DNA of 64,000 nucleotides from positions 6,809 through 70,808 of the forward strand of contig JAGVYA010000040.1 of NCBI GenBank assembly GCA_018303505.1. Reading direction: 5' to 3'. The translations under genes were made by a program, and so were the position numbers. The notes beneath the pieces were generated by a model. That model made no database searches, was not told where the DNA came from, and worked only from the letters and a program-made list of their open reading frames with translations. Source of the stretch: Candidatus Woesearchaeota archaeon. GTDB lineage: Archaea > Nanobdellota > Nanobdellia > Woesearchaeales > GW2011-AR4. Shown one piece after another: positions 6,593-52,362 of this stretch (position 1 is the stretch's first letter; each line of letters starts with the position of its first letter).

Positions 6593-7332
6593 ATGAACCT
6601 CTCCAAAGAAAAAAGAGTAATGCTTCTTGCTGCAAGAGAAGCTGAAAAAGTTCTAAAAAAATATTACGGCAGAAAGGTAGAAGTCAAAATGCTGATTTGG
6701 AAGCTGACAAGGCAATAAAAAGAACAATAAAAAAATATTTCCCAAATCACAGCATTCTTACGGAAGAAAGCGGTTTTGAGGACAATAACTCAGATTACAA
6801 GTGGGTAATCGACCCAATAGACGGTACGCACAACTTCTTGCGCGGTATCCCTATTTTTGGCACCTCAATTGCCTTGGAATACAAAAATGAAGTAATTCTC
6901 GGGATTCTTAATTTTCCAATGCTAAAGCTAAGGGCAATTGCGGAAAAAAACAGAGGAGCATTTTTGAATGGAAAAAAATTGAAAGTTTCAGCCAAGCGGG
7001 ACATTGACCACTCATTTATACTGATGGAATTTTCTTATGCCAACAGAAAAGAAAAAATAGGGTTCTTGGAAAAATTAATTCATGAAGCTATCGATATAAG
7101 GAATTTTGGCTCTGCTATCTACCATTTATTGCTTATTGCTTGCGGCAAATGCGATGGATTCATAGTCTTGACAACTCAGGAATGGGATGTCGCAGCAGGA
7201 TTTCTGCTTGTTGAAGAAGCTGGTGGGAAAATTACCAACTTACATGGACAAAAATGGGATTTCCACGATACAAGGTATATTATATCAAATGGCAAAATTC
7301 ACAATAAGCTCTTGGAATTTGTCAAAAAATGA
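6593..7332 (+). pseudogene. suhB: Inositol monophosphatase / fructose-1,6-bisphosphatase family (SuhB-like) gene disrupted by a 1-nt deletion frameshift near 6686-6689
   Basis: The N-terminal part (MNLSKEKRVMLLAAREAEKV...GRKVEVK) is in one frame. The rest (ADLEADKAIK...WVIDPIDGTHNF...WDVAAG) is in the -1 frame. Adding one A to the A4 run at 6686-6689 restores a continuous ...VKNADLEADKA... It may also be an intact gene with a homopolymer sequencing error. Confidence 0.65.
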
Positions 7333-8078
7333 AATTAATAATTCTGGGAAGCGGAACAGCAGTTCCTTTATTGGAAAGAAATTGTGCAGGATACCTGTTA
7401 GAGGCAGGCAACAGAAAAATATTGCTTGACACTGGAGCAGGGACTATAAGAAGGTTATTGGAGGTAAAAGCGGATTTGTTTGAGATTGACAATATTTTCT
7501 ACACGCACCTCCATAACGACCACATCAATGATTTAGGTGCCATCATTTGGAGCAATAATTACGGCGGAATAAGGAAAAGGGCGTTAAATATTTACGGACC
7601 TTATGGACTCAAAAAATATTGCAGAGCTCTGATTAAAAAATTATTGAAACCGACAAAATTGCATTTTGATTTTATTATTGAAGAATTGAAAAATTCAGAA
7701 ATAAAAATTGGCAATATAAAGATAAAAACCCAGCAAATTAAACACAGCCCTGCAACTAAAAGCATTGCGTACAGAATTGAGCATGGAAACAAATCTCTAG
7801 TCTACACAGGCGATACAGAATATTGCAGCGAAACAATAAAAATATCAAGAAATGCCGATGTTGTATTAACAGAGTGCTCCTTTCCGGATAGTAAGAAGGT
7901 CGAAGGCCATTTAACTCCCTCCCTTGCCGGGAAAATTGCAAAACAAGCGAATGTTAAAAGGCTGGTATTGACTCATTTTTATCCTGATGTTCTAAAAACA
8001 GGCATCAAAAAAGAAGCTTGTAAGGAGTTTAAAGGAGATATTGTTCTTGCCAAGGACAAAATGGTCTTAAATATTTAA
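7329..8078 (+). CDS. Metallo-beta-lactamase fold hydrolase (RNase Z-like)
   Basis: HLHNDH (HxHxDH) motif and an N-terminal glycine-rich start ILGSGTAVP. Length is 249 aa. Confidence 0.6.
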   Translation: MKLIILGSGTAVPLLERNCAGYLLEAGNRKILLDTGAGTIRRLLEVKADLFEIDNIFYTHLHNDHINDLGAIIWSNNYGGIRKRALNIYGPYGLKKYCRALIKKLLKPTKLHFDFIIEELKNSEIKIGNIKIKTQQIKHSPATKSIAYRIEHGNKSLVYTGDTEYCSETIKISRNADVVLTECSFPDSKKVEGHLTPSLAGKIAKQANVKRLVLTHFYPDVLKTGIKKEACKEFKGDIVLAKDKMVLNI

Positions 8079-8117
8079 TGAACATTCTTTTTTAAAAAAT
8101 AGAAAAGTTTATAAATA

Positions 8118-9008
8118 ATGAACGATTTTTGCATAATGATGGAAATAGGCCAAAACTTAAAAAACAGAATCCTAAGGGCCCAAAAGAACGAGCTCACAGA
8201 GCATATAATTTACAAGAAGCTCTCTGAAATAGCAAGAAATGCAAAAATCAAAAGAATTCTTGAAAAAATCTCGGCCCAAGAGCTTTCCCATTACAATTTC
8301 TGGAAAAATTACTCACATCAAGTCATAGCGCCAAATTATTTCAAGGCGCATTTTTACTGCCTAATTTCAAAATTTCTGGGCTTAAATTTTGGCTTGAGGC
8401 TGATGGAAAGAGGCGAAAAAGCTGCGCAAACAGCTTATGAAGAGCTGAAAAAGATCCATCCTAAAATTAAGAACATCCTGAAAGATGAGCAAAATCATGA
8501 AGACAAACTTTTGGATTTGTTAGGCAAGCAGGAATTGACGTATACGGGCTCTATAATCCTAGGTTTAAACGACGCTTTGGTTGAGTTAACAGGGGCTCTT
8601 GCAGGCTTTACATTGGCGTTTACAGAAACAAGAATTATTGCAATTGCCGGGCTTATAAGCGGCATTGCCGCATCACTTTCAATGGCTGGTTCAGAGTACC
8701 TCTCCACTAAGGAGGAAGGAACAAGAGAACCAATAAAAGCAAGCCTTTACACAGGTGTTGCTTATATTCTTGCGGTTTTTTTATTAATCCTGCCTTATTT
8801 TATCTTTAAAAGTTCTTTACTATCTTTAGCAACAACATTGATTATTGCACTGCTAATCATTTTAATTTTTAACTTTTATATCTCTGTCGCTAAAAATATA
8901 CCTTTTAAAAAAAGATTTTTAGAAATGGCACTCATAAGTTTAGGTGTGATGATAATAAGCTTTTTTATAGGACTATTAGCAAGAAAATTCCTTAATATTG
9001 AAATTTAA
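8118..9008 (+). CDS. VIT1/CCC1-family iron/manganese transporter with an N-terminal ferritin-like domain
   Basis: A soluble N-terminal helical segment is followed by hydrophobic segments with the GLNDALVELTGALAGF motif typical of VIT family proteins. Confidence 0.55.
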   Translation: MNDFCIMMEIGQNLKNRILRAQKNELTEHIIYKKLSEIARNAKIKRILEKISAQELSHYNFWKNYSHQVIAPNYFKAHFYCLISKFLGLNFGLRLMERGEKAAQTAYEELKKIHPKIKNILKDEQNHEDKLLDLLGKQELTYTGSIILGLNDALVELTGALAGFTLAFTETRIIAIAGLISGIAASLSMAGSEYLSTKEEGTREPIKASLYTGVAYILAVFLLILPYFIFKSSLLSLATTLIIALLIILIFNFYISVAKNIPFKKRFLEMALISLGVMIISFFIGLLARKFLNIEI

Positions 9009-10702: not shown

Positions 10703-10823
10703 ATACTCACGGACAAAAAATATTGAACAATTGTTGTCCATTCGTAATATGTCGGAAATTGCAAAAATGTATAATAAATTGTTACAATTTCCGAGCATGC
10801 TCAAAAATCTTTGATTTTTGACA
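10703..10823. repeat. Copy A of a conserved intergenic element of about 125 bp (two hairpins plus the GAGCATGCTC palindrome), upstream of fabI
   Basis: It shares TATACTCAC..., an exact 20-mer TTCGTAATATGTCGGAAATT and an exact 22-mer ATTTCCGAGCATGCTCAAAAAT with copy B at 52022-52160. Both hairpins carry compensatory substitutions between the copies. Confidence 0.7.
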
Positions 10824-10950
10824 AGCAAAAGACATTGATTTGACAATGCTTAAGCTTTCATTCAAATTCCAGCTTCTCAGTAAGATTTATAAAGCAAGAT
10901 TGTTTCTTCGACGTAATATAAAAAAAATAATATTTTGGAGTAATGACAAA

Positions 10951-15850: not shown

Positions 15851-15924
15851 TAGACGTGTCTAAAACCCTCAAATTCCGCCTTTTTAAGCCGTAAAAAGCC
15901 ATTCTAATTAGGAAAGATACATAA

Positions 15925-17373: not shown

Positions 17374-18126
17374 GCATACCCCCTACACATTGGAAATACT
17401 TATCGATTTTTAAAGGTATAGGGTTGTAATAGAAAGACCATTTAATAACTTGAATTGATATCATAAGGTAACCTCTTTTCCTATATTTTTATATCTTGAA
17501 GTATTATATTTAAATATATTTCGTTTATTAGTGCTTTTTATCAAATCTCTGGTAAGTCAAATATAAACTCAATTTTTGCATTTGTGAACTACAAACAGTC
17601 ATCTTAAAAGGCTTAAATTCTGCCTTGTCAAAAATCATAGATTTTTGAGCATGTTCAAATTCTGCTGAATTGGTAAGTCTTGTGTAATTACTGCCCTTTA
17701 AAATGGCAGAATTTGCCCATTTTAACCCTTAAAAAGCCATTCTAGGAACGAAAGGTTTATATAGTTAGGCTCTCTAAAAATCATGGGTTTAAATACTATT
17801 TTATCGACTATAAATTTGGGGTTTTAATAATTTTCATATAAACCGAAATTAGACATAAAACTAGATGGATTATGTTGATTAAATAAATTAATGAGTTAAA
17901 ATAAAAAATAAATTAAATTTGCATTAAACAAATTAAAAATTATAAAAAAATAAACGAGAGCGACCTTTAGATTAACAAGTGAATAAGGTGACCCGCTTTT
18001 AATTTTTTTATTGAATACATAGGCGAGGCGTAAATTAATGGCAGACAATTTACGCCGAGCATTAAAATTTGTTGCCGAAGGCAACGGATTGAAGATAAAA
18101 GTAAATTAAATCAAATTAAAAGATAA

Positions 18127-22634: not shown

Positions 22635-22712
22635 TCTTTTTTTAAATATAAGAAAAAACTAATAATTCAATCAAAAATAAAAACCCAATAAAATAAAAAT
22701 CAAAAAATAAAA

Positions 22713-23379
22713 TGAAAAAAATAATAGCCCAAGGTGCAGAAGCAAAATTATTCTTGGAAGATAATAAAATTATCAAAAATAGATTTTTAAAATCATACAG
22801 GATTAAGGAAATTGATGAAAGATTGAGGGGCTTCAGAACAAGGAGAGAAGCGCGAAGATACTGCAAAAATTAGAAGGAATAAATTTTCCAGCTCCAAAAT
22901 TAATCAATAACGATGAAAAAGAAAACTTACTGATTGAAAAGATTGATGGAAAATTAATTAAAGATATTCTTGAAAAAGCCGATTACGGAAAATTATGCGA
23001 AGAAATTGGAAGAAAAATAGCAATTTTGCACAACAACTCAATAATACACGGCGATTTAACAACATCAAATATGATATTAAACAAAGAAACGTCGATAAAT
23101 CGCAAAGCGATTTTCGATCGTGCTCGAAAATCTATGATTTTCGACATTTATTTTATTGACTTTGGGTTGTCGTTTTTTTCTGAAAAAGCTGAGGATAAAG
23201 CTGTTGATTTGCATCTATTAAAAGAAGGGCTTGAATCAAAGCACTACAGAATATGGGAAAAATGTTTTAAGTACGCTCTTGAGGCTTACAAAAAAGAAGC
23301 AAACAAAAGCAGTGAAACATTAAAACGGCTTGAAATTGTTGAAAAAAGGGGGAGATATCGTGCAAGGAAGGGAAGTTAA
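22713..23379 (+). pseudogene. bud32: KEOPS kinase Bud32 (Kae1-associated Ser/Thr kinase) with a 1-nt deletion frameshift near 22855
   Basis: The N-terminal part (MKKIIAQGAEAKLFLED...RTRREAR) is followed by a stop. The -1 frame continues KILQKLEGINFPAPKL...HGDLTTSNMIL...IDFGLS, with the catalytic loop and DFG motif. It may be an intact gene with a sequencing error. Confidence 0.65.
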
Positions 23380-31604: not shown

Positions 31605-34600
31605 CTAACTTACTATTACCCCGCACATCTCTACCGCATCGGTTGAGGTCCACGCCCATCCGCATGTTTCTAATATAATGGTGTCGGCCAAGAAGTTATC
31701 ATTAAACTTCTTTGTTAAAATACATGTGTTATCAGGTCCGGCATACACAAGCTTTTGTTCCGCAGTTGCATTGTTTTTTAACCACATCCTGTTCCAGCAT
31801 ATATCATAGTCCCCAAATATGGTAAAATTTTTAACCATTATTAATTTAGGGTAAGATAATGTTATATTAGCTTTTACGTTCCAATTAGTAGGGTTCCACG
31901 ATTTTTGGGTGCCACTCCAGATTGAGCACTCAATGTCCGCGTCAGGGGCACCAGTAGCATATATTGGCTCAGACCCGGTATTGCTTGATGTAGCATTTGC
32001 TGAAATAGCAAAATTACATAAATTAATAAATGTTTCAATAGTACATAGATTACTGCATCCATCCCCATTTACGAGGTTACCGTCATCACATTGCTCACCT
32101 GATTCAAGAATCGAGTTGCCACATTCTGGTAAGGGAGCACCTTTTACCACACGAATGTTCCTAACCCCTGAGGGATTAACATTAAACCTTATTGAGGAAC
32201 CATCTCTTTTAAAAGAAGTTACAACATTATCAATCTCAACTTTCTGCACGTTGCTTGAATTTACAAAAACTTTTATAGATATATTTTGGTTGAATAGCAG
32301 AGAACTTAAATTCCCAACTAAATTAAATGTAATTTCTGAATCTGTTTCTACCAAGTTTTGTATTTTTGCATTTTGTCTCTCTTTAATGTATTTCGCAACC
32401 TTACCAACAGGTGCAACCCACAAATCCTTAGTGGCAAGATAATCTATAGAGCCATTATCTTGGCATTCGTTGTGGAATACGAAGTTTACCCACTTATGCC
32501 GAGTTTCTGCATCATCTGCAGACATAAAATAGCTTGGTGGCTCTAGTGTCCTATCATGATAACCTGGCGTATTTAAACTTTTGATGTTCATAAAATCAGC
32601 AGGGTCTTTATCTTCCAACTGGTTGATATGATATCCGCGGGCTGAAACATAATATTCGCTTGTTATTGTTTTCATTTCTTCGTTATTGATGCCACAAGGC
32701 CATGCAAATGATGAAAGATCTTCTCGTGGCATTGGAATATTAGTTAAAATATCATTTATATTTGATCCCAGCTCTTGCCTTAATGTTGGCTCATTCATTA
32801 CCAAGCAGGAATGTGATTGTGTATGTCCTCCTATTTCATGTTTTTCAGCATATATGTCTCTCCAAAGATTCCATTTTGCTTCGTCAAAAGAACTAGTTTC
32901 AGAGAGGTAATAAGTTCCCTTGAATCCTTTTTGGTTTAGTTTATCTCTACAGGAAGAAAAACTATCGTCTATCGAAACAGATGCTGCTCCTCTATGGCAA
33001 TCCTGCCAGTCGCAAATCACTGCAATTGTAGGCACTATAGTCACGGGGTGCCTTAGATTATAAATTTCTGCAGGCTTTAAGAATTTAATTCTTGAATCAT
33101 TCTTGGCCATCAACAATGTTGTTGTGTATATGTTCCATTTTTGTTGATTTACTATTGGCTGAATTTCTGACATCATAAAATCCTGCTGATGGCTCATTAA
33201 AGAAACAACTTTGGTGCCATTTATGTAAAGCATGTCGCTGTCATTAAAAGCAATTATCTCTTCTATTACCTGCTCTGGTTGTTTAAAAGCCTCCCCAGGA
33301 CCAGGCTGTCCACTAATTGTAAGACTTACTGAGTATTGTATTACATCGTAATCGGGCAATGGATTAATGTGACCATATTCACTTACATATTGGTCAAAAT
33401 AAACCTTAAATCCAAGATCGTGGGTTGCATCCCTTATAGTCTCAGTAAACCTTCCAAGAAGTTGATTGTACGAAACAGGAGATGTTACATTAGAATAACC
33501 TATTTTTTCCAACTCGGTTATATATTTATTTTGCCATTCTTGAATTACCGATTTAACCTGAGAGTAAGACATCATGTCAAGTGGTGTTCCGTTGCTTGAA
33601 CTTTCACCTTTGAGTATAAGCTCAACATTTTTACTAGAGTACATATTTCCAATGATTTGATTGAATTCATTGTTGTCCATGGTGCCAGGATAAAAACTTA
33701 ACCCAATGGGTATGTTATTATCGTCATGCCATTGTCTTAACTGGTCGTAAAAGAAGAACCAGTCTGGATCAATACTGCCATCGATATCGCCAACATAGGG
33801 CACGAGGTATACCGACACATTTGAAGTTGTTGTATTTGTTGGTAATTCTTGACTATCTTGAACTGGCGTATACTCAAAACTGAAATACATGTCCTTACTA
33901 TCGTATTTTGTAGTTTTTGTAAAATTATTATTTGATATTAGCATATATGAATTAGCACCGTCATAAGAATAGTAATCAATTAATTTTCCATCTGAGAAAG
34001 TATCAGTACCTCCAAAAGTTTTCCAATTATTAACTAAATTTCCGCAACCTCGTGGACATTCCAGTATTAAATTGTAAAAAGTATTATTTGATATTATTAC
34101 ATTTCGATTTAATGTACAATTCCCAATTTCTGGTTTTGTTATATTTTTTAGTTGGCAGCTCCCTAAAACTTCATTTGATGTTGTATTCCTAATTTGTGCA
34201 TATAGAAATCCCTGTCCAGTTCCTTTCACAGGGCTATATTTTATAGATACTGCACTTATATTTAATTTTCCAATTAAACTCCTAAACCTCTGTCCCTGTC
34301 TATTGTAAATATCTATGAAATGCCCGCTAGTAAAAATTTCACCTTGTTCTGGTAAACCCTTCCATTCACTACTTACATTAATAGCAAACTTTAATCTTTC
34401 TGAACTCACTGAAGGTGCCTTAAAATTACCTCTAACACCTCTTTCTCTTCTAAATGATGTATCTTTTATACCACTTGGTGTATAGAACTCGTTATCTCCT
34501 GTTGTGTCCATAACTGCCACTCCTAAAGAGATGTATTTTGAACTGCTACAACTGTCACAGTACCAACAAAAATGGTAAACTGTTCCTTGGTTTATAGTTA

Positions 34601-34994
34601 TTAATGGCACACTTATATTTAGATCAGATACACCATAATTAATCGTTTTATTAATAAATGTTAACCATGTTCCGCTTGGATTTCCTCCATTATCTGCCAT
34701 AAACCCTATTGTAATTTTGGGAAAACCTTTCCTACCTTTTAAATTAAAAGAAATAGCTGTAACATCTCCAGTTTTTGTTGAGTTAAATCTTTGACACTCG
34801 TATTCCATATTAACATCTAATTTTGTATTGTACGATGATGATACTGATGAAAATTGCCCAAATGTGGCTCCCTTTACATAAGCAATATTAATAACTAAAA
34901 TTAAAATAAATATCAATAACAATTTTAATTTCTTATTCAATTTACCTCCAATTGTTTCCGCACATAATGGCAAACTCTTAATTTCTTGAATCAT
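31605..34994 (-). CDS. Giant secreted protein (1129 aa) with a CE4 polysaccharide-deacetylase-like domain and a C-terminal Cys-rich repeat (CGNGxxExGEQCDDGN...DGCS)
   Basis: Signal peptide or TM at the N-terminus, many N-x-T sequons, NodB-like SIDDS...GGHTQSH motifs, and the repeat ECGNSILESGEQCDDGNLVNGDGCSNLC. Confidence 0.55.
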   Translation of the reverse strand: MIQEIKSLPLCAETIGGKLNKKLKLLLIFILILVINIAYVKGATFGQFSSVSSSYNTKLDVNMEYECQRFNSTKTGDVTAISFNLKGRKGFPKITIGFMADNGGNPSGTWLTFINKTINYGVSDLNISVPLITINQGTVYHFCWYCDSCSSSKYISLGVAVMDTTGDNEFYTPSGIKDTSFRRERGVRGNFKAPSVSSERLKFAINVSSEWKGLPEQGEIFTSGHFIDIYNRQGQRFRSLIGKLNISAVSIKYSPVKGTGQGFLYAQIRNTTSNEVLGSCQLKNITKPEIGNCTLNRNVIISNNTFYNLILECPRGCGNLVNNWKTFGGTDTFSDGKLIDYYSYDGANSYMLISNNNFTKTTKYDSKDMYFSFEYTPVQDSQELPTNTTTSNVSVYLVPYVGDIDGSIDPDWFFFYDQLRQWHDDNNIPIGLSFYPGTMDNNEFNQIIGNMYSSKNVELILKGESSSNGTPLDMMSYSQVKSVIQEWQNKYITELEKIGYSNVTSPVSYNQLLGRFTETIRDATHDLGFKVYFDQYVSEYGHINPLPDYDVIQYSVSLTISGQPGPGEAFKQPEQVIEEIIAFNDSDMLYINGTKVVSLMSHQQDFMMSEIQPIVNQQKWNIYTTTLLMAKNDSRIKFLKPAEIYNLRHPVTIVPTIAVICDWQDCHRGAASVSIDDSFSSCRDKLNQKGFKGTYYLSETSSFDEAKWNLWRDIYAEKHEIGGHTQSHSCLVMNEPTLRQELGSNINDILTNIPMPREDLSSFAWPCGINNEEMKTITSEYYVSARGYHINQLEDKDPADFMNIKSLNTPGYHDRTLEPPSYFMSADDAETRHKWVNFVFHNECQDNGSIDYLATKDLWVAPVGKVAKYIKERQNAKIQNLVETDSEITFNLVGNLSSLLFNQNISIKVFVNSSNVQKVEIDNVVTSFKRDGSSIRFNVNPSGVRNIRVVKGAPLPECGNSILESGEQCDDGNLVNGDGCSNLCTIETFINLCNFAISANATSSNTGSEPIYATGAPDADIECSIWSGTQKSWNPTNWNVKANITLSYPKLIMVKNFTIFGDYDICWNRMWLKNNATAEQKLVYAGPDNTCILTKKFNDNFLADTIILETCGWAWTSTDAVEMCGVIVS

Positions 34995-35012
34995 TTTATT
35001 TATTTGTATATA

Positions 35013-35110
35013 TTATTTGTGTATATATTACCCATTATTCGTGTTTGTTATTAGCTATTTATTATTTGTGTATATATTACCCATTATTCGTGTTTGTTAT
35101 TAGCTATTTT
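35013..35110. repeat. Perfect tandem direct repeat, 2 x 49 bp, in the intergenic region upstream of the giant-protein gene
   Basis: TTATTTGTGTATATATTACCCATTATTCGTGTTTGTTATTAGCTATTTA occurs twice back to back, with a partial third copy before it. Confidence 0.8.
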
Positions 35111-52021: not shown

Positions 52022-52160
52022 TATACTCACCCACAAAAATTATTGGGTATTGTTATGGGTTCGTAATATGTCGGAAATTTTTATTATTCATTAATTTTGC
52101 AAAAATTTCCGAGCATGCTCAAAAATTCCATCATGTATTCGTAAATTGGAATTTTTGACA
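52022..52160. repeat. Copy B of the conserved intergenic element, upstream of polB, followed by the odd palindrome TTGACAGTCAA
   Basis: See copy A at 10703-10823. Exact 20-mer and 22-mer matches, plus covarying hairpins. Confidence 0.7.
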
Positions 52161-52362
52161 GTCAACAACAAAAATACATTAAACCTAATTACTTTGTTGG
52201 TTGACTATATTGATTTGCTTAAGGAAAATAATGTTTACTTGAATATTGAGAAGGAGGATGTCGAGCAGGCGCTTGATACAGCTAGAAAAGTAATTTGAAT
52301 TCACATTGATTTTTCTTCAACTTACCAACACTTTTATATACCAAAAAAGCTTCTCGTGCATT

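Follow-up and report, generated by a model that had tools for sequence, protein, structure and literature searches.

Nested palindromic repeats dispersed through Woesearchaeota genomes, with in-frame copies in protein genes

Two intergenic segments of a Woesearchaeota contig (JAGVYA010000040.1), within a 64-kb stretch that was analysed as a whole and is called here the window, raise the question of what kind of element is conserved, with paired hairpins, upstream of both the enoyl-ACP reductase gene (fabI) and a family-B DNA polymerase gene (polB). An earlier note, made from the letters of the window, had proposed either a small non-coding RNA (ncRNA) family or a shared cis-regulatory module, and had excluded a decaying MITE (miniature inverted-repeat transposable element). 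According to our analysis, the two copies, A and B, are probably composites of two nested palindromic repeat families that populate the genomes of Woesearchaeota (DPANN archaea), and the inner, two-hairpin core of each composite acts as a non-autonomous insertion element. The family is a dispersed, nested and insertion-polymorphic palindromic repeat that is tolerated in essential genes only when it can be translated. The best reading of the element is that of a mobile or formerly mobile palindromic repeat, similar to the Rickettsia palindromic elements (RPEs), the repetitive extragenic palindromes (REPs) or MITEs, which is the opposite of the exclusion drawn before, though the repeat is well conserved and not decaying.

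Copies in the window and anatomy of the element

A covariance model built on the core (R1), with which the window was scanned with filters off, detects four core copies in the 64 kb, named A to D. Alignment of the matches to a search pattern described below yields the core consensus (A)TGTC-GGAAAT[variable]ATTTCC-GAG-CATG-CTC-AAAAAT[variable]ATTTTT-GACA, in which hairpin 2 (GGAAAT..ATTTCC), the linker GAGCATGCTC and hairpin 3 (AAAAAT..ATTTTT) lie between the ends TGTC and GACA. The minimal form measures 54-57 nt and longer forms reach ~120 nt, the extra sequence being located in the loops. The core has 5'-TG..CA-3' ends, and its halves are two TC-RR-AAAT..ATTT-YY-GA hairpins flanking GCATGC, so that the whole core is nearly equal to its own reverse complement. 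Its terminal inverted repeats, TGTCGGAAAT against the reverse complement of ATTTTTGACA, match at 8 of 10 positions (10 of 10 counting G.T pairs) and are kept as TGTCRRAAAT / ATTTYYGACA in 72 copies. The features of the window copies are as follows.

10703-10749, plus strand: left module of copy A, with TATACTCAC, hairpin 1 (ACGGACAA..TTGTCC) and, as linker, TTCGTAATA, whose last bases are the target ATA
10750-10823, plus strand: core of copy A, 74 nt, R1 86.3 bits, E 3.5e-19
10750-10753, plus strand: TGTC at the start of the copy A core
10752-10761 and 10785-10794, plus strand: arms of hairpin 2 of copy A
10795-10800, plus strand: GCATGC of copy A
10801-10821, plus strand: hairpin 3 of copy A, TCAAAAATC-TTT-GATTTTTGA, followed by the final two bases of the core, CA
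10824-10840, plus strand: what is left of copy A's hairpin 4, AGCAAAAGACATTGATT, the remainder and the closing TATA being missing
17620-17725, minus strand: core of copy C, divergent and full-length, R1 40.2 bits, E 1.7e-07
23090-23146, plus strand: minimal core of copy D, 57 nt, CGTCGATAAATCGCAAAGCGATTTTCGATCGTGCTCGAAAATCTATGATTTTCGACA, in frame in the Bud32 gene, encoding TSINRKAIFDRARKSMIFD
52022-52068, plus strand: left module of copy B, with TATACTCAC, hairpin 1 (CCCACAA..TTATGGG) and TTCGTAATA
52069-52160, plus strand: core of copy B, 92 nt, with long hairpins 2 and 3, R1 94.6 bits, E 2.7e-21
52161-52205, plus strand: hairpin 4 of copy B, GTCAACAACAAA..TTTGTTGGTTGAC, fold -9.6 kcal/mol
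52206-52209, plus strand: closing TATA of copy B and end of the composite 52022-52209

Copies A and B each have their core set inside an outer repeat of the form TATACTCAC-hairpin...hairpin-TATA, between its hairpins 1 and 4. The full composite, ~190-200 nt long, thus runs in the order TATACTCAC, hairpin 1, TTCGTAATA, hairpin 2, GCATGC, hairpin 3, CA, hairpin 4 and TATA, and a T5 run follows a hairpin on both strands of the element. The left module of the outer repeat (TATACTCAC, hairpin 1 and linker) was found in nine further places or genomes, and equivalents of hairpin 4 in six other composite copies besides copy B. Hairpin 4 is strong in every composite copy and its sequence differs from copy to copy; that of copy B occupies the position equivalent to that of copy A and is unrelated to it in sequence.

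Copies A and B both start with TATACTCAC at the places reported before and are 77% identical to each other. The 20-mer TTCGTAATATGTCGGAAATT (10741-10760 and 52060-52079) and the 22-mer ATTTCCGAGCATGCTCAAAAAT (10787-10808 and 52105-52126) said to be shared by them each occur exactly twice in the window, where dinucleotide shuffles give 0.00-0.03 expected matches with up to three mismatches. The extent of about 125 bp given for them falls short, since hairpins 3 and 4 and the TATA also belong to the element, and copy B spans 52022-52209. The third hairpin, TCAAAAAT..ATTTTTGA, is part of it, and the TTTTTGACA that had been taken for a separate downstream motif is the 3' arm of hairpin 3 at the end of the element. 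The perfect GAGCATGCTC palindrome, on which the proposed regulatory module had been centred together with that motif, forms part of the core. The flanking genes were correctly named, with fabI downstream of copy A, where the adenylosuccinate-lyase gene (purB) lies upstream, and polB downstream of copy B. The possibility that A and B are the att sites of an integrated element covering 10.8-52 kb was rejected, given that this interval contains gyrB, ribosomal protein and tRNA genes and that the two copies are 77% identical. Directly beyond both composites, at 10841-10856 and 52210-52224, a common TTGA-NNN-TGCTTAAG occurs (TTGACAATGCTTAAGC and TTGATTTGCTTAAGG) that is absent from composite copies of other genomes; either the outer repeat may be extended in this genome specifically, or the resemblance may be due to chance.

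The weak partial copy noted at 17643-17663 is present as well, but it is not partial, as it falls within the complete divergent copy C on the minus strand, which scores 40 bits. In this copy hairpin 3 is intact (TCAAAAATC-TAT-GATTTTTGA) and hairpin 2 has been replaced by a different stem of 10 bp, all paired (CAAATTCTGC..GCAGAATTTG). Copy D scores 42 bits with a model match spanning 23084-23152, and its hairpins are still paired though the copy is old and diverged. Copy C adjoins the second unit of another intergenic repeat, a 52-nt sequence (..TAAAAAGCCATTCTA..) found at 15872-15923 and 17710-17761 with 75% identity, this second unit being located in a 780-nt gap before gyrB.

Spread, targets and genomic context

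The further copies that the earlier note had looked to in this genome and its relatives exist, namely copies C and D in the window and many others elsewhere. A pattern of 23 exact bases from hairpin 3, CATGCTCAAAAAT-N(3-33)-ATTTTTGACA, searched over one genome per species, matches at least 114 stretches in at least 54 archaeal species genomes. Among the matches listed, nearly all genomes are titled Woesearchaeota, Nanoarchaeota or Nanoarchaeia; some records carry the unconfirmed label 'uncultured Methanosarcinales', and two bacterial matches, in which the remainder of the element is missing, seem to be due to chance. The covariance model found ~125 distinct copies in 692 kb across 100 related loci, and covariance and hidden Markov model (HMM) searches of ~0.7 Mb of locus sequence recovered ~16-25 copies that the pattern had missed. 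The host genomes span ~34-52% G+C, as read from isolate names, and the core sequence is nearly invariant across the at least 54 species. This pattern and a second one from hairpin 2 had no match in 2.9 million viral contigs, and phage and plasmid collections gave nothing other than one chance match within coding sequence rich in G+C; nothing therefore supports an origin from viruses or plasmids. We found no description of the element family, its nested build or its in-frame copies in the literature.

The junctions of the core point to insertion at a defined, one-sided target. Adenine occupies position -3 in 58 and position -1 in 57 of 72 copies (A-N-A before TGTC), with an unconserved 3' flank, and target duplications are lacking: a 3-nt direct repeat flanks none of the 72 copies, a 2-nt repeat five and a 4-nt repeat one, and pairs of filled and empty sites likewise show no duplication. 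Three empty sites end in AAA or ATA. An empty site also lies in the window.

18022-18061, plus strand: empty target site, hairpin GGCGAGG-CGTAAATTAA|TGGCAGACA-ATTTACG-CCGAGCA, with the insertion point at 18038/18039

At this locus, GGCGAGG..GAT[G/A]|TGGCA..CCGAGCA, neither the window nor L035 has a core, whereas L028 and L033 carry one of 55 nt and L007 one of 96 nt. The presence of different core forms at the same hairpin in different genomes fits repeated insertion or later remodelling. The surrounding region upstream of gyrB (18022-18100) is a conserved, hairpin-rich non-coding locus (GGCGAGG..CCGAGCA..GGATTGAAG) that recurs in L007, L028, L033 and L035 and serves as a target of the core; it has no Rfam match and may be an undescribed small RNA.

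The independence of the two nested families is apparent in L026, where hairpins 1 and 4 of a composite stand without a core between them (..TTCCTAATA|AGCAAAG..) and an oppositely oriented core occupies the hairpin 4 loop. The core thus forms a separate element that has become nested within repeats of a second family, and copies A and B are nested composites of this kind. Cores also follow one another directly, tandem cores being joined as GACA|TGTC so that each follows the ACA end of the preceding copy. Head-to-tail arrays of two or three cores were observed at L040 5309-5477, L055 3571-3687 and L032 2845-2969; the array cores overlap by their terminal bases (GACA|TGTC), and as a consequence hairpins alternate with the palindromic linkers GAGCATGCTC and GACATGTC, both centred on CATG.

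If copies A and B belonged to a structured small ncRNA family, or to an RNA or promoter module acting in cis on fabI and polB, their position upstream of same-strand genes would be readily understood. The context of 130 copies bears directly on this proposal.

Between co-directional genes: 56 copies (23 in gene orientation, 33 opposite)
Between convergent genes: 16 copies
Between divergent genes: 13 copies
Inside open reading frames (ORFs): 17 copies
At contig edges: 28 copies

The 23 copies oriented with their genes against 33 in the opposite sense, together with the copies that lie in frame within coding sequences, oppose such a module. The genes beside the copies are varied housekeeping genes, none of which recurs in an all-against-all clustering of 1,404 ORFs, and no composite-bearing locus of another genome encodes purB, fabI, polB or their neighbours. 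By inspection, the likely TATA boxes of fabI (10883-10890) and polB (52333-52341) lie downstream of the elements, which also speaks against this proposal. A sigma-70 promoter reading of TTGACA was rejected, as the host is an archaeon and a promoter scan found three candidates where 2.3 were expected, that is, the level of shuffled sequence. A function as terminator only is weakened by the 13 copies in divergent regions and the 17 inside ORFs.

Near-identical strain contigs, retrieved through the purB product, allowed us to follow copy A at short evolutionary range. Strains L002 and L005 retain an intact hairpin 4 in copy A, GCAAAAGACA..TGTCTTTTGC, followed by TATA (L002 11800-11860), relative to which copy A of the window has a 38-nt deletion; most of its hairpin 4 and the TATA are gone because of this deletion. 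Strain L001 carries a 23-nt duplication within hairpin 4 of the same copy (L001 11800-11850), and copy B is identical in six strain contigs. In L003 and L126 the contigs stop at or within the element, as expected of assemblers at a repeat. One strain contig, L004 (JGI 3300009031, 6850-8582), diverges from all other strains directly after the closing TATA of composite A (window 10840 onward); the DNA past the TATA contains two secreted or surface-protein genes without counterpart in the window, and the contig ends before the other junction. Homologues of the L004 surface protein were found on short contigs. A cassette may have been inserted here, or the DNA may have been rearranged at the boundary of the element.

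Paired stems and translated copies

The hairpins are under pairing constraint, as had been argued from copies A and B, and the compensatory changes hold with about 100 copies aligned (hairpin 2 in 72 and 107 copies, hairpin 1 in 10). In hairpin 2, 99.3% of cells are paired among 72 copies, both-sided changes occur in nine of ten pairs (one pair is G-C in 47 and A-T in 22 copies), slid controls pair 28-56%, and none of 500 shuffles reaches the observed covariation. As that 72-copy set favoured paired stems, the count was repeated on 107 copies from a sequence-only HMM, which gave 981 Watson-Crick pairs, 22 G.T, 13 A.C and 26 other combinations, ~94% being Watson-Crick. Hairpin 1, present in 10 copies from 9 genomes, is 95% paired and doubly changed at five of eight pairs, again at a level that none of 500 shuffles reaches; its pairing in copy B stands, with the correction that one C.A mismatch occurs on the plus strand.

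Covariation of this strength, and folding of A and B that beats shuffled sequence on both strands (z -3.6 to -6.0), might be taken as support for a structured RNA. Nevertheless, the stems are nearly pure Watson-Crick and G.T is not clearly above A.C, so that no RNA strand is singled out, and the stems point to a palindrome maintained in DNA rather than in RNA. Rfam searches of the window, both copies and 18 related loci, at gathering and permissive thresholds, returned only tRNAs and noise. Selection on a folded RNA, one of the two alternatives (RNA or DNA hairpin) given in the earlier note, would not be the cause, and the two-copy ncRNA or fabI/polB module is not supported, given a core found in at least 54 genomes beside unrelated genes, without a preferred orientation and with in-frame copies. 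Taken together with the context data, we consider an ncRNA family or a cis-regulatory module very unlikely.

The copies inside protein genes provide a second line of evidence. Copy D lies within the gene for Bud32, the KEOPS kinase (window 22712-23379). In a PDB alignment with Methanocaldococcus jannaschii Bud32, residues 2-82 correspond to chain positions 51-130 and residues 101-172 to positions 130-201, leaving residues 83-100 (18 residues, TSINRKAIFDRARKSMIF) unmatched with respect to both 8unk_B and 2vwb_A. The alignment breaks exactly at copy D, which places the 18 residues, as an insertion, in the stretch from the catalytic loop to the DFG motif. Bud32 orthologues in Woesearchaeota mostly have 202-203 residues without the insertion, the window type having 221; the orthologue P0172 (L127) carries the same 57-nt element at another codon, after KDILE, and several orthologues carry an unrelated second palindromic insert (SNASELRS.RTRSQLT, from TGTCGAATGCGAGTGAGC...) at the site used in the window. 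The Bud32 insertions in different orthologues have thus arisen independently.

Two side observations concern these genes. The second palindromic family, which is richer in G+C (TGTCGAATGCGAGTGAGC..GCTCACAATTGAC), occurs in frame in many Bud32 orthologues (L128 470-540; L127 620-740), and a similar sequence sits in the hairpin 2 loop of a core in L073. The window bud32 reads GCGCGAAG at 22846-22850, where the 99%-identical protein P0073 implies GCGAAG; this extra CG shifts the frame after ~47 codons and corresponds to a pseudogene or to a sequence or assembly error.

In carA, a 17-residue gap relative to human CPS1 falls exactly at the peptide MSANRSAISEHAQKSKIFD, and further in-frame hosts are carB, a PrmC-like NPPY methylase, a CapA-like protein and two unnamed proteins. 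All seven copies in well-supported genes measure 57 or 93 nt, and are divisible by three, free of stops and in a common frame and orientation. The chance of seven such lengths out of seven is ~(1/3)^7, and core lengths modulo three are distributed as 34:24:30 in the family as a whole. The peptide common to the in-gene copies is MS.NR.AISEHAQKS.IFD, and evidently these copies are translated as an additional putative surface loop of 19 or 31 residues. A tandem profile of the 19-residue peptide, run against the protein database, passed the E-value threshold only with small spurious ORFs.

The translatability of all seven of these copies indicates that selection has filtered the in-gene copies, which favours translation and opposes splicing. 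A small intron removed from RNA, either of the bulge-helix-bulge type cut by the tRNA splicing endonuclease or self-excising, would also account for copies inside protein genes and in hairpin loops of conserved non-coding loci, and a HicA-like toxin gene whose frame is broken by a 91-nt copy has its frame restored, by inspection, upon exact TGTC..GACA removal. Against it, the seven stop-free multiples of three in one frame are a signature of translation, no bulge-helix-bulge (3-nt bulge, 4-bp helix, 3-nt bulge) could be drawn by inspection at the carA, carB, Bud32 or HicA junctions, no ribozyme family matched at permissive Rfam thresholds, and the majority of copies are intergenic. We regard an intron as extremely improbable.

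Mobilisation, conservation and known repeats

The core behaves as a non-autonomous insertion element that inserts immediately 3' of A-N-A without duplicating its target. It often enters the single-stranded loop of another palindrome, giving rise to nesting, or inserts after the ACA end of another copy, giving rise to tandems, and it occasionally enters genes, where only the stop-free, one-frame copies of 57 or 93 nt are found when these genes are essential. The compensatory changes in the stems would then reflect a need for complementarity of the arms in DNA, and not selection on a regulatory RNA; the hairpin is perhaps recognised, or formed, in single-stranded DNA during mobilisation, or mismatches between the arms might be repaired. 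A trans-acting single-strand 'peel-and-paste' enzyme (HUH, IS200/IS605 or RAYT-like) is a possible mobiliser. The hairpin ends, the one-sided target, the lack of duplication and the ACA right end resembling the target make an HUH-type mechanism the best fit, and under mobilisation of this type a preference for other palindromes' loops would be expected as well.

Several observations weigh against this account of A and B as carriers of a mobile core. Near-identical strains show no presence/absence difference of the core, only hairpin 4 being variable. No recurrent transposase-like ORF was found near the copies in 114 loci, each at most 8 kb long and so a small fraction of its genome, and a crude IS200-type HUH..Y motif scan of ~850 kb, likewise a small genome fraction, gave no candidates. 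Neighbouring copies share orientation in 16 cases and oppose it in 8 (12:8 excluding tandems), which is too weak to support the strand bias expected of single-strand transposition. The nearest relative of a copy lies within its own genome for only 14 of 80 copies, with a mean best identity of 0.75 within and 0.85 between genomes; the subfamilies consequently predate the species and most copies are old, while a few paralogue pairs with 93-95% identity suggest some later activity. Since the 23 bases of hairpin 3 were fixed by the pattern search, their invariance is a product of its construction and the conservation of hairpin 3 is not evidence. Finally, at orthologous loci the core is 0.83-0.99 identical and its 250-nt flanks 0.70-0.86, on an alignment whose noise floor is ~0.70-0.75. 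A core more conserved than its flanks makes plain junk DNA inadequate as a description and requires that selection acts on it, that the copies undergo gene conversion with one another, or that hot spots receive insertions repeatedly.

It could be proposed from this conservation that the repeat is a functional module kept by the host, either a recognition site, in DNA or RNA, for a Woesearchaeales-specific protein or a bidirectional terminator, which spread as a repeat and is now under selection; a binding protein might act in chromosome organisation, DNA uptake, or RNA stability or processing. The near invariance of the core across at least 54 species of such different G+C content would agree with it, as would the excess of conservation over the flanks, the hairpins still paired in the old copy D and the hairpins followed by T5 on both strands. 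On the other hand, copies lie in divergent intergenic regions and in essential genes where no use as terminator or binding site is evident, their orientation is unbiased, many sites are empty in close relatives without visible replacement, no partner protein has been identified, and recurrent insertion or conversion between copies could conserve the core equally well. We find a host-kept module unlikely. As orthologous loci show stronger conservation in the core than in the flanks, we also entertain, as a bolder and still rather doubtful idea, that it constitutes an order-wide, sequence-constrained two-hairpin module kept by selection, either as the recognition site of an undescribed Woesearchaeales protein or as the substrate of a new transposase-poor, loop-targeting insertion system that re-seeds the same sites. 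Were this true, the module would regularly supply these minimal-genome archaea with new surface loops in their essential proteins.

Returning to the core as a probable insertion element, its anatomy is closest to that of REP/REPIN and IS200/IS605-derived elements. With the REP/REPIN-RAYT system and the IS200/IS605-derived PATE it has in common hairpins at both ends, the absence of target duplication and a short conserved sequence on one flank, as well as paired inverted hairpin units, clusters and tandem arrays, and stems kept as DNA palindromes. Unlike in these systems, ORF clustering and the crude motif scan of ~850 kb revealed neither a Y1/HUH transposase nor a RAYT, and the hairpin feet of the core lie only 2 nt from its ends, closer than in IS608. 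REPs are extragenic by definition, whereas the Woesearchaeota core also enters genes. Classical MITEs (Correia/CREE, ERIC, Sulfolobus SM) resemble it in being short, non-coding and multicopy, with terminal inverted repeats and 5'-TG..CA-3' ends, and in being sometimes co-transcribed or translated with host genes; they differ in that the core shows no target-site duplication (a 3-nt repeat at 0 of 72 copies), has no known parent insertion sequence and is conserved between species well above what is usual. An integron attC site was rejected, as the aligned copies show no R''/R' core sites (RYYYAAC / GTTRRRY) and have housekeeping genes as neighbours.

Among archaea, Suyama, Lathe and Bork reportedly described in 2005 the MJRE palindromic repeats of Methanocaldococcus jannaschii, which are said to belong to that single species, to show low identity between copies and to be mostly extragenic, with a few frame-keeping copies in coding regions. 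Going by this description, both repeats are archaeal and mostly extragenic with few frame-keeping genic copies, and they differ in that the Woesearchaeota core is near-identical in at least 54 species and commonly forms nested composites. Woesearchaeota and other DPANN archaea, whose genomes measure ~1 Mb, are considered poor in mobile elements. Even so, nested palindromic repeats are sown through these genomes, with ~20-60 copies of the core per Mb in the present sampling; they break assemblies, vary between strains and add loops of 19-31 residues to essential enzymes such as Bud32/KEOPS and carbamoyl-phosphate synthetase. A census of prokaryotic MITEs had counted a Woesearchaea genome, at 105 MITEs per Mb, as one of the densest in archaea (PMC11602168).

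RPEs insert in frame into unrelated metabolic genes, where they encode a conserved peptide, and they comprise several families (PMC10969869). As with RPEs, the archaeal element is a short palindromic repeat of a reduced genome that occurs both between genes and in frame in housekeeping genes without destroying the protein, and in both cases there are several families, mostly old copies and no known transposase (PMC10969869). The two come from different domains of life and are likened here by behaviour, homology not being expected across domains; the archaeal element is also shorter (57-120 nt against ~100-150) and has a two-hairpin pseudo-dyad, a one-sided A-N-A target, frequent nesting and near-invariance at the level of an order. 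The element family itself appears to be new, while the kind of element, RPE- or REP-type, is already known, and the RPE-like pattern, notable in Rickettsia, now appears independently in a lineage of archaea with reduced genomes. With the covariance model and the consensus the copies can be masked, which should prevent their misreading as ncRNAs, riboswitches or regulatory motifs, and the conservation across species offers a lead toward a mobilising or binding protein.

The window also contains a different repeat. At 35007-35104, directly upstream of a minus-strand gene of 1129 residues (31605-34994), two tandem 49-nt units are 98% identical, with one mismatch between them.

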